Origin: a virus
Lineage: Duplodnaviria > Heunggongvirae > Uroviricota > Caudoviricetes
Virus record (IMG/VR): IMGVR_UViG_2861053794_000003
Coordinates: 1-48,167 of that record
Reading direction: 5' to 3' (one strand)
DNA length: 48,167 nt
In this document: piece after piece, positions 33,001 through 36,000 of the stretch
How positions within the stretch are numbered: position 1 is the stretch's first letter
Layout of the letters: each line of letters begins with the position of its first letter
Position numbers: made by a program

Positions 33001-36000
33001 TTTAATGTACCGAACCGCTTTTCTGACATAAAAAACCCGCTCAATGGCGGGCGGTAAAAATCTTTGTTACTCAGGAAATTTTAACGCACCCTGACAACAT
33101 TAATTTCAAAATCATCAATATTTCCGCTATTACATATAACGAATTTCTTACCCCCACTACTGTATGATTTCGATAACACCAGACGATCATCATAGCGCGC
33201 AATAATGTAATACCAGACATTCTCATAGTGGATCGCCTGATATTCCCTCTTAAACTGTGGTTTGTACCAACCGGCAATAAGAGAGAATGCCCAGAAATAA
33301 ATCATAAACCCAGCCATCATGAACTCAATTCGGTGATGGCGAATAAAATACATTTCCGAAAAACAACTGACTGAAACAAGTCTTCTTCCTGACCTGACAA
33401 AAAGCGTGATTATAAAGACAGCAATAACGCAAAAAATCAGTACATCTGGCTCAACATGCTGATGAATTACCGAAAACTCCAGAACAGGTGGAATAAAAAG
33501 CAGCAATATCGCAAGAAAAAGTCTGATAAAACTCAAATTTTGTATATTGCGCTTTTGTTTTATGCCCAAAAAGAAAACAATGCCAACGCCCCATCCAATA
33601 AGGAATATAACGATAACTGTCACAGCATAAAACAAACTTCGTGCTACATCATCGACACCAGCCCCGACAACCCACCATGGAAAGCCATAGTAAAATGAAG
33701 TACCCCATCCATAGAAATAAGCGCTTCCCCATCCGAGACAGCCCATATAAGCAACAAAAAGTGAAGAGTTTCTGAGCAGAGCACTGTCATCCATAGTAAC
33801 ACCATTAACAACTCAAAAATATTAACACGCATTACATAACAAATTGGATTCCATACAGTCAAGGGGCGTCATAGAAGGAGAAAGTATTGGCACAGTCGTC
33901 ATAACGTTTAATGTCGATACTGTTTTTTTAGGAGATAAAAACCCGCTCGGTCGCGGGTTTTACTAGCTTTGCCATCACGTAGAAAATCGGCAGAATATCA
34001 GATTTACACAAAACATATGCCTTTTAATCTACTTTTGCAATACTTTGCTATGAAAACGCTGCCTTTTGTGTTGAACGCGTTCTCACCACTAACAATAAAG
34101 TTTCACTATCCAGCCGATGAAAAATGTGTTTCATTGTAACCCAGTGACCAGTAAATGTCTTGGACCAGTTTTTGGTTGTTACCCCCGTCAGTAACGCCAG
34201 TTCCTGATATCCATAACCTTCCCCACCAAAAAGCTCAGCTTTTACCGCCTGCGACGCCAACCAGATCAACGTCTTCAGGCGCACCAGCGTTTTTCCTGCA
34301 ATTTTTCTGGCACCGGATTGAGCATTAAATTCATTCCACGCCCACCGCGTTATCGCGATCTGATGCTCCCAGCAAATGCTACCGCTGTAACACCACAGCA
34401 GCCAGGCTTTATGATGTTCTTCAAGAGACAGAACTGCCCGCCGCCATGATGATGTTGAAAACTCAACCGGACTGACCAGGGCAATTGATGAGCCTTTCGC
34501 CAGCGATTGTTTTCCCGGGATCGGTGGATTATCCCGCGTTATCATTTTTCCGGTTACTTCATCGCGGTACCGGATTTTTTTGCGTCTGTAACGCCCTGTA
34601 TCGAACAGGGCATTCTCCTGCCAGGCTTCCAGCTGGCCTTTTGTCGAACCACTGAGATCCGCAGTGGCAATCATGAGTTGCTCACGAACAAACTGTAAAT
34701 ACTGGTTATTCATGCACTCCCCACCTCAGTAATTTTTATCTCCAGGCGTCCACCAGATACTGGCTGACCACGTACAATATTGATTTCATCAAACTGCTCA
34801 TCGTCCATTAACAGCCCCGCATGCGTCAGCGCATCCAGGGGCGCTTTCAGGATATTGTCCAGATCCCGACGTCGCTTATCCGGAGGCTTTGCAATCACCT
34901 TTATCGCCAGCCTTCCGGACAGGCTTAGTTTCAACCGCTGCTGGCGAACAATAAGCGCCACAGCCCGGCGATAGCGCTTTCCCTCCTCAGATATAAAATA
35001 TGTGCTGCCACGACGACGCCAGTAAGTGTTCACCGTCGGCGGCCAGGGCAAAACAAACTCTGTACGCATCAGTCACCTCTTTCACCCAAGCACGCCAGTT
35101 GCAAAAGCGTGATCAAGAAAACGAAAAATCAAATCAACCTGGGAACCATACTTTTCTTCGAACGCCAGCGGATCTGCATGAAGTTCGTTGTGATGTTCCC
35201 GGCACAGCGGTAGCGTGAAAATATCGTGGGCCTTTGTTCCCATTCCTCCCTGACCATGACCAATCAGGTGATGCGGATCGTCAGCTGGCTTACCACAACA
35301 TGCACACGGCTGTGTCTTTACCCAGAGCGTGTATTTCTCATTTACCCAACGGCGACGTTTAGGCCGCTTCATGAAAGATTCCGGAGACTCCGGATCAACG
35401 GTAACGCTGACCACCGGCTTTTCCTGTGGTGGGTTCTGTTGCTGGTGGGCGTTATGCGGCAGCACAATATTTTTAGTGCGCTGCTTCAGAATGCTGGTGG
35501 CAGTCTGCTCTCCCGGTATGATGTCGCTCTCACTGTATACGGAGCGGATTTTTTCCACCGGTAATCCCAGCGAACGACGCAATACAGACTCCGGAAGCGC
35601 ATCAGCCACCTGATTGCAGACCGCCCACCAGGATAATTCAGCCAGCGATAATTCCCGCTCCTGTGTGCCATTCATTGCGTGACGAATGACGTCAATCATC
35701 CATGCTGACAAGTTTTGGTGAGCAAGTTGCCCAAGTGATTCGGAGGTCTGGTCGCGCAGCTGGTTGTCGCAGTGCCAGCACAACACCATCGCGCCAGTAC
35801 TATAACGGTGAATGACGGTTTCGCTGTGATGATAATCGCCGTGTGGCCACTGGCAGGATTTAATATGGCGCAACAGCCAGTCAGACAATGCACCAGCACC
35901 ACCAGCAGCACGAATCACCCGTGCGTTACTGAAAAACGGCAGCAATGTTTTGTCTTCCACCAGCGGCTGGCGAACGGCAGGAACGACCCCGGACGGCAGA

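Follow-up and report, generated by a model that had tools for sequence, protein, structure and literature searches.

Morons in the sense of Hendrix and Juhala are familiar from lambdoid phages, with bor and lom of lambda and gene 15 of HK97 as examples, and those prophage morons known to encode inner-membrane proteins mostly exclude other phages, as SieA of P22 does. Here we analysed a gene of this kind in a 48,167-nucleotide stretch of Caudoviricetes DNA (IMG/VR record IMGVR_UViG_2861053794_000003, positions 1 to 48,167; hereafter, the window), where an AT-rich cassette directly behind the late-gene switch of a lambdoid Escherichia coli prophage carries a gene for a predicted inner-membrane protein of the STM1630 family (33081-33794, minus strand). 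As a feature it is of an ordinary type, a moron encoding a member of an uncharacterised family; the gene was already annotated in RefSeq and its family catalogued, so that finding it here is not new. Its interest lies in its prevalence among pathogenic enterobacteria and in the striking constancy of its place behind the antiterminator gene Q.

The family takes its name from STM1630 of Salmonella Typhimurium (SL1344_1560), a gene that clusters with those co-regulated with Salmonella pathogenicity island 2 (SPI-2; PMC2639726, Table 2). STM1630 is expressed in macrophages and is down-regulated in sequence type 313 (ST313) through single-nucleotide polymorphisms (SNPs) in the -10 box of its promoter (10.1101/689075; 10.1101/450098), and its deletion left replication in macrophages unchanged (10.1101/689075). 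In transposon-directed insertion-site sequencing (TraDIS) the same gene, there called SL1560, was nearly devoid of insertions, which the authors credited to occlusion by H-NS (PMC3632133). In a screen, deletion of STM1630 led to hypermotility (PMC4219756); the deletion was later remade without the resistance cassette by authors who considered that some motility effects in the original screen may have been indirect and due to polarity of that cassette (PMC4534456). Among phages, a relative is found in phage 434, whose derivative 434B had the whole segment from Q to the lysis genes replaced by DLP12 DNA and still forms plaques (PMC9119081).

To delimit the cassette, we used two E. coli prophages (CP024618 and CP044403) that possess the same Q, pR', tR' and downstream genes and are without the gene. 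When positions 32300-34750 of the window were compared with both empty sites by BLAST, homology ended at 33040 or 33035 and resumed at 33926 or 33955, defining an extra block of about 885 bp (approximately 33041-33925, minus strand), whereas in the empty sites the flanks are joined directly. There, the single tR' hairpin continues into TTTTTTTATGTCCGAAAA; in the window, TTTTTTTATGTCCGAAAA comes after a second hairpin instead, and two similar terminators thus bracket the extra block. The second hairpin is the cassette's own intrinsic terminator (33029-33052, minus strand), consisting of a GCCCGC-loop-GCGGGU stem (33052-33035) followed by six U residues; it was called by the terminator scan and folded as RNA at -12.1 kcal/mol (z -2.6). 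A first-pass annotation, made from the sequence alone, had proposed a moron with a terminator of its own, and had let it begin at 33029 because the terminator's U-tract ends there. The moron with its terminator was borne out: the block shows sharp-ended presence and absence in collinear phages, deviant GC content and its own terminator, and it is a moron inserted right after tR' of a lambdoid prophage of the Rac-immunity type.

The coding sequence opens with an ATG and spans 714 bp including the stop codon, encoding 237 amino acids. Its GC content is 39.4% (37% at third codon positions), compared with 48-55% in the flanks and 51.2% in the whole window, in agreement with the low-GC gene of this length described earlier, for which no strand had been stated. 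The open reading frame (ORF) is a genuine gene and not a chance one, because full-length homologues with 42-57% identity occur in other genera (Salmonella, Citrobacter, Klebsiella, Cronobacter and Yersinia) and because the ratio of nonsynonymous to synonymous substitution rates (dN/dS) is 0.18, as measured against an unsaturated allele from a plasmid of enterotoxigenic E. coli (ETEC; dS 0.84). By segment, dN/dS was 0.07 (residues 1-80), 0.31 (81-156) and 0.15 (157-237), and purifying selection acted most strongly on the N-terminal 80 residues (omega 0.05-0.07). Conservation of residues 1-16 between genera identifies Met1 as the start; this ruled out Met17, where the phrog_1521 match begins. 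Two overlapping plus-strand ORFs (80 and 48 amino acids), neither of which had any support, were discarded as chance, and an Rfam scan gave no match inside the gene. The region is 99.8-100% identical to prophages of about a dozen complete E. coli genomes, including several Shiga toxin-producing strains, e.g., 95-3322.

The first-pass annotation had found no recognisable motif in the protein; in fact, it belongs to a recognisable family, STM1630 / PF27470 / PHROG 1521, which is catalogued but uncharacterised. Residues 17-237 matched phrog_1521 at E 3e-85, and all 109 homologues collected carried a precomputed PF27470 tag, one of them being 99% identical and the STM1630 cluster 46% identical to our protein. 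The PF27470 assignment is by homology to these tagged proteins, local copies of Pfam-A and NCBIfam 20.0 having given no match. RefSeq, through its Prokaryotic Genome Annotation Pipeline (PGAP), names 99.9% identical genes 'STM1630 family protein'. The protein also has the architecture of the family, i.e., a Gly/aromatic motif in the first transmembrane helix (TM1), five TM helices and a C-terminal beta domain. The motif GWGSAYFYGWG..YYGFPWW is near-invariant in close members and still recognisable in Neisseria and Pasteurellaceae, which were added, at 20-29% identity, by an exhaustive profile search of 1.8 billion cluster representatives that returned only 75 matches. A search for confident homology to a family of known function found none.

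The precomputed name of PF27470 is 'TfpB'. A literature search for this label yielded an unrelated Acinetobacter TfpB ATPase, and two profile searches, one of them built from the Neisseria and Pasteurellaceae members only, returned no protein named TfpB and none from Moraxella. The label may derive from tfpB, the ORF of the pilin-inversion system of Moraxella bovis and M. lacunata.

In order to characterize the protein further, we examined its composition, topology and predicted structure. The description of an aromatic-rich membrane protein with about five TM segments and a soluble C-terminus proved apt: Phe, Trp and Tyr together make up 19.8% of the residues, and hydropathy analysis gave four above-threshold peaks in addition to the Gly/aromatic N-terminal helix. 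Two AlphaFold runs and the hydropathy profile agree in outline. The second run, made with 42 sequences (predicted local distance difference test score 79, predicted template modelling score 0.71), placed helices at residues 10-36, 47-78, 89-111, 116-135 and 155-181, followed by a C-terminal domain of about 55 amino acids with five beta strands (residues 184-235), which corresponds to the soluble part. Across the family, Lys and Arg residues number 2.7 and 3.3 in loops 2 and 4, compared with 0.1 and 0.4 in loops 1 and 3, and by the positive-inside rule this distribution therefore places the N-terminus inside and loop 1 and the C-terminal domain in the periplasm. The protein is thus predicted to reside in the inner membrane, N-in, with five TM helices and a periplasmic C-terminal beta domain.

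Conservation follows this layout. The best conserved region is TM1 with loop 1 (GWGSAYFYGWG.S.YYGFPWW...D.(V/I)ARSLFYA), and the start of the C-terminal domain is also well conserved (YKPQ.KKEY...WYYVLARY); TM3, TM4 and the cytoplasmic loops are variable. The constrained surface therefore appears to face the periplasm. Structure comparison found no solved structure and no viral model resembling the predicted fold. Comparisons with defence families and with SieA and SieB likewise gave no match.

We next consider the surroundings from which the gene would be expressed. The prophage reads on the minus strand, and in phage direction the order is the DUF968 gene (35082-36131, minus strand), the RusA gene (34710-35069, minus strand), Q, a pR'-like promoter, tR', a spacer, the gene and its terminator. 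The Q gene (34048-34713, minus strand) encodes a 221-residue antiterminator (PF06323, Phage_antiter_Q, E 6.7e-89; phrog_304), and its counterpart in an identical prophage is annotated 'bacteriophage antitermination protein Q'. Behind it lies the candidate late promoter pR' (34012-34040, minus strand), with a -35 element TTGCAA (34040-34035), a 17-nt spacer and a -10 element TATGTT (34017-34012). This block was read from the sequence and is conserved in both empty-site relatives, scored below threshold in a consensus promoter scan, and is regarded as the putative pR' on account of its position and conservation. The tR' terminator (33933-33961, minus strand) is a GC-rich hairpin, AAAACCCGC-loop-GCGGGUUUU, followed by a U-tract; it folded at -14.2 kcal/mol (z -3.0) and is homologous to the single terminator of the empty sites. 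An AT-rich spacer of about 140 nt separates the tR' hairpin from the ATG at 33794. The gene thus lies where it had first been placed, right after the Q-pR'-tR' module.

Inside the cassette, 68 nt before the ATG, we found a promoter-like block (33833-33862, minus strand) comprising a -35 element TTGACT (33862-33857), an 18-nt spacer ending in TGn and a -10-like element TATGTA (33838-33833). Of 42 unique upstream sequences (viral contigs, plasmids and phage 434), 37 contain the pattern TTGACN-N16-18-T[TA]ATG at a distance of 66-69 nt from the ATG. The block is better conserved than any other stretch of the intergenic region, and it persists on the ETEC plasmid and beside a truncated Q gene. In the cassette its -10 element is non-consensus, and the block was missed by the consensus scan; its position and conservation suggest that it may act as a promoter.

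The gene is widespread. DNA-level matches were present in 1,196 of 5,426 complete E. coli genomes (about a fifth), at a median of two and up to four places per genome, and 187 IMG/VR stretches encode relatives. For the statistics on gene context we drew on IMG/VR and RefSeq E. coli, a species-level genome scan having given only 5 loci, and the viral counts cover the 79 usable loci among 80 fetched of the 187 stretches. In 72 of these 79, a Q gene ends 207-279 bp upstream (in one case, 453 bp); 46 of the 72 Q genes belong to PF06323, 20 to the lambda-type PF03589 and 6 to DUF1133/PF06530. Since the same position is held behind three unrelated Q families, the slot is conserved across antiterminator types. 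Phage 434 (CPT_434_68, annotated 'putative membrane protein') and prophages of O157:H7 and of enteropathogenic E. coli (EPEC) E2348/69 share one identical copy, 56% identical to our protein, which again lies after Q and a terminator, and the Yersinia copy lies downstream of a PF06530 Q gene. The 434-type allele of these three is always accompanied by the lipid A deacylase gene lpxR, in the order lpxR (minus strand), ylcG, Q and the family member.

Other copies lie elsewhere. The Salmonella copy stands between steB and sseJ, and the chromosomal copy of Citrobacter rodentium stands beside lpxR fragments, with no Q between, at a site syntenic with that of STM1630. On the Shigella plasmid pINV, the copy is found between IS21 copies, and a remnant of the gene lies near the iro island. 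Distant homologues in Avibacterium, Neisseria and one metagenomic contig each stand alone amid housekeeping genes, at sites that differ from one another, and a remote Klebsiella homologue lies at the icd site beside an AAA_21/AAA_23 ATPase pair. No conserved partner gene was found across the contexts inspected. All host taxa that were identified, i.e., Enterobacterales, Pasteurellaceae and Neisseria, are animal-associated.

Three of these neighbourhoods deserve description in their own right. On pUMNK88_Ent of a porcine ETEC strain (NC_017640; locus L018, 2987-5714), a 75% identical member lies about 870 bp from the heat-labile toxin (LT) genes eltAB, divergent from them and among insertion sequence elements; it keeps the phage-type promoter-like block, which suggests that the LT region of this plasmid carries a fragment of a lambdoid late region. 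In IMGVR_UViG_2859677112_000002 (1540-3714), a 69% identical member that lacks the usual promoter-like block lies 234 bp downstream of divergent stx1A/stx1B genes, whose nucleotide identity to the stx1 genes of known Stx1 phages is 86-87% (B subunit PF02258, E 3.5e-45). Finally, in Klebsiella electrica-like contigs (L028/L029, 4176-7741), a remote member of about 16% identity (profile E 4e-08) adjoins, at icd, an AAA_23/AAA_21 ATPase gene, its 167-amino-acid partner and a SRAP fragment, an arrangement that looks like a small defence or integration hotspot.

Taken together, these results strongly indicate that the gene is accessory, as had been supposed, that it works alone and that it is not needed for phage growth: collinear prophages do without it, and 434B is a plaque-forming phage despite having lost it (PMC9119081). 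As for what it does, we tentatively favour a role at the periplasmic face of the inner membrane in protecting the lysogen or the infected cell, most likely by superinfection exclusion. This caution applies to the functional guess alone; the anatomy is near certain. RNA polymerase modified by Q would read through tR' and transcribe the gene strongly at lytic onset. The cassette's own putative promoter could allow additional expression in the lysogen, which would probably be silenced by H-NS, a silencer of AT-rich DNA, as for the Salmonella homologue. The most conserved parts of the protein (TM1, loop 1 and the C-terminal beta domain) would face the periplasm. According to the exclusion proposal, the product would keep the genome of an infecting phage from crossing the inner membrane. 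We favour exclusion because it is the usual role of prophage inner-membrane morons, because the protein needs no partner, because its constrained face is the periplasmic one and because genomes carry several diverged alleles, which would fit allele-specific exclusion.

Several observations weigh against exclusion. PADLOC gave no match to a defence family at E up to 0.1, only families of unknown function and no annotated exclusion family were matched in PHROGs, and hhalign returned probabilities of 0.8% against P22 SieA and 0.1% against SieB. Homologues are also scarce in sequenced phages, present in only 3 of 50,697 records; megablast of the region against this set gave nothing, and the protein-level search found phages 434 and 2B8. 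Far from diversifying, the N-terminal part on the periplasmic side is extremely conserved, a pattern easier to square with a conserved host target than with phage proteins that vary. In addition, the copies on virulence plasmids point towards host adaptation.

Host adaptation is indeed nearly as likely as superinfection exclusion, and we consider it possible that the gene is a lysogenic conversion factor that changes an envelope property of importance in the animal host, such as resistance to host antimicrobials, surface structures or motility. In host-like conditions the gene would then be expressed from a promoter of its own, one silenced by H-NS, and the slot near Q would be merely a permissive insertion site that it shares with other virulence cargo. 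Virulence-associated neighbours recur around the family (sseJ/steB, eltAB, stx1AB, pINV, and lpxR in 434, O157, EPEC and C. rodentium), although the adjacency to toxin genes may merely reflect a shared cargo region between Q and the lysis genes. The animal association of all identified taxa, the conservation of the promoter-like block independently of Q and the very strong conservation of the periplasmic motif, suggestive of a conserved host target, are consistent with such a role; against it, no biochemical clue and no fold match came to light. The Salmonella data bear on it in both directions. STM1630 is co-regulated with SPI-2 (PMC2639726), expressed in macrophages and marked by promoter SNPs in ST313 (10.1101/689075; 10.1101/450098), and it is apparently occluded by H-NS in TraDIS (PMC3632133); yet SPI-2 co-clustering is common to any H-NS-silenced AT-rich gene, and macrophage replication of the deletion was unchanged (10.1101/689075). 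Likewise, the deletion was hypermotile (PMC4219756), but the motility effects of that screen may in part have been polar (PMC4534456).

The remaining explanations appear much less probable. One of them, an abortive-infection or membrane-toxic effector that would depolarise or permeabilise the inner membrane when abundant, late in the lytic cycle or upon infection, is unlikely. A small polytopic protein with a conserved Gly/aromatic-rich TM1 (GWGSAYFYGWG) could oligomerise, and the gene is a singleton with no partner, located where induction makes transcription surge. The same solitude leaves it without a sensor partner, PADLOC gave no match, and the stable presence of the gene on the chromosome throughout Salmonella (clusters of more than 2,600 sequences) does not speak for a toxin. 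The near absence of transposon insertions in SL1560 would suit a toxic product, but was credited to H-NS (PMC3632133), and clean STM1630 deletions are viable and grow normally (10.1101/689075). We are similarly doubtful, and a shade more so, that the protein is a type IV pilus accessory factor, working like the TfpY/FimB pilin accessory proteins (N-in membrane proteins that assist the assembly of pili) and thereby modulating a pilus that doubles as a phage receptor. This idea comes from the family name TfpB and from the architecture, TM helices followed by a periplasmic beta-containing domain, which resembles that of TfpY-like proteins (PMC11841053). The likeness is one of general architecture: TfpY, TfpZ and FimB-like proteins have three TM helices and genes that adjoin the major pilin gene (PMC11841053), whereas our protein has five and no pilin gene adjoins a member in any locus inspected. 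Distant homologues do occur in piliated, naturally competent Neisseria and Pasteurellaceae, and about 2 kb separate one remote homologue from a gene with a prepilin N_methyl motif; the name TfpB turned up in the literature for the Acinetobacter ATPase, though. Lowest of all, as very unlikely, we place the idea, raised in the first-pass annotation, of a lysis-timing factor, i.e., a membrane protein encoded in the late operon that would resemble an antiholin or modulate the holin. The gene is the first of the late transcript, and a membrane protein with a periplasmic domain is superficially like T4 RI; however, the holin and lysozyme genes are about 6 kb away, and the gene's own terminator, a methylase gene, two tRNAs, four small RNA (sRNA) copies and nanS-p intervene. 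Such a role is also hard to reconcile with the absence of the gene from otherwise collinear prophages, with homologues that stand alone at non-phage chromosomal sites and on plasmids, and with the plaques of 434B (PMC9119081).

Returning to superinfection exclusion, we also entertain a broader form of it, which we consider rather improbable: that STM1630 / PF27470 constitutes a new class of single-gene envelope protectors, acting on the periplasmic side of the inner membrane, for example by blocking genome entry via a conserved host component, and placed repeatedly by lambdoid phages at the head of the late transcript, downstream of three unrelated Qs. If this were true, about a fifth of complete E. 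coli genomes as well as the Salmonella chromosome would carry an unrecognised exclusion system, one that travels with the genes for Shiga toxin and heat-labile toxin. More generally, a phenotype of either kind, phage exclusion or host adaptation, would show what a prophage cargo gene so common in pathogenic E. coli, Shigella and Salmonella is for, and would also explain its preference for the tR'-proximal slot; without a phenotype, it would be one more uncharacterised moron.

Some features around the cassette are recorded here. Immediately after the cassette terminator lies a small gene (32709-33044, minus strand) whose start is ambiguous, with an ATG at 33029 within the terminator's U-tract. 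phrog_331 aligns from this ATG (about 106 amino acids), RefSeq annotates the last 65 codons only, and the empty-site relatives preserve the reading frame of the longer version; the product gave weak winged-helix-like matches to TrmB and DprA_WH, both below threshold. Farther along in phage direction, downstream of the methylase gene, are two phage tRNAs (31304-31458, minus strand), a Lys(UUU) tRNA and one with a CAT anticodon, which ARAGORN calls Met and RefSeq calls tRNA-Ile in the identical prophage, suggesting an ileX-like lysidine tRNA. The gap of about 1.9 kb that RefSeq leaves unannotated between these tRNAs and the nanS-p-like esterase gene is filled by four tandem copies of the sRNA STnc100 (RF02076; 29563-30678, minus strand), scoring 131.9, 96.6, 103.6 and 76.6 bits against a gathering score of 47. 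In Stx phages, stx occupies the slot of this array. On the other side of the switch, about 0.4 kb beyond the DUF968-RusA-Q genes and on the strand opposite to its neighbours, is a ParD/ParE-type toxin-antitoxin pair (about 36547-37109, plus strand, coordinates transferred from the annotation of the identical prophage), with RacR/YdaS/YdaT-type immunity genes further on.

How, then, does the locus compare with the systems described before? P22 SieA, the functional model for the exclusion proposal, is likewise small, polytopic and located in the inner membrane, and its gene is a prophage accessory gene with a promoter of its own (annotated in that case), but it shows no detectable homology to our protein and lies at another genome position; any common function is conjecture. 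With the classic lambdoid morons, the cassette shares the general design of an extra gene of deviant composition, equipped with a promoter-like element and a terminator and patchily distributed among collinear phages; the encoded proteins are unrelated, and the promoter is here a putative one. STM1630 is 46% identical over its full length (E 5e-67). It has 238 amino acids, counted as the same length, and shares the invariant N-terminal motif, the C-terminal domain and a setting in AT-rich, horizontally acquired DNA. It differs in being chromosomal and fixed between steB and sseJ, with no prophage around it, no preceding Q and another upstream region, such that its reported -10 box (10.1101/689075) lies in sequence non-homologous to that of the cassette. 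The gene of phage 434 differs in having another Q allele, lpxR-ylcG-Q upstream and a DUF3927 gene downstream, and its annotation includes nine extra N-terminal codons that are not conserved in the family; it nonetheless fills the same slot directly behind Q and a terminator, and its ATG is preceded, at 67-68 nt, by the same promoter-like block.

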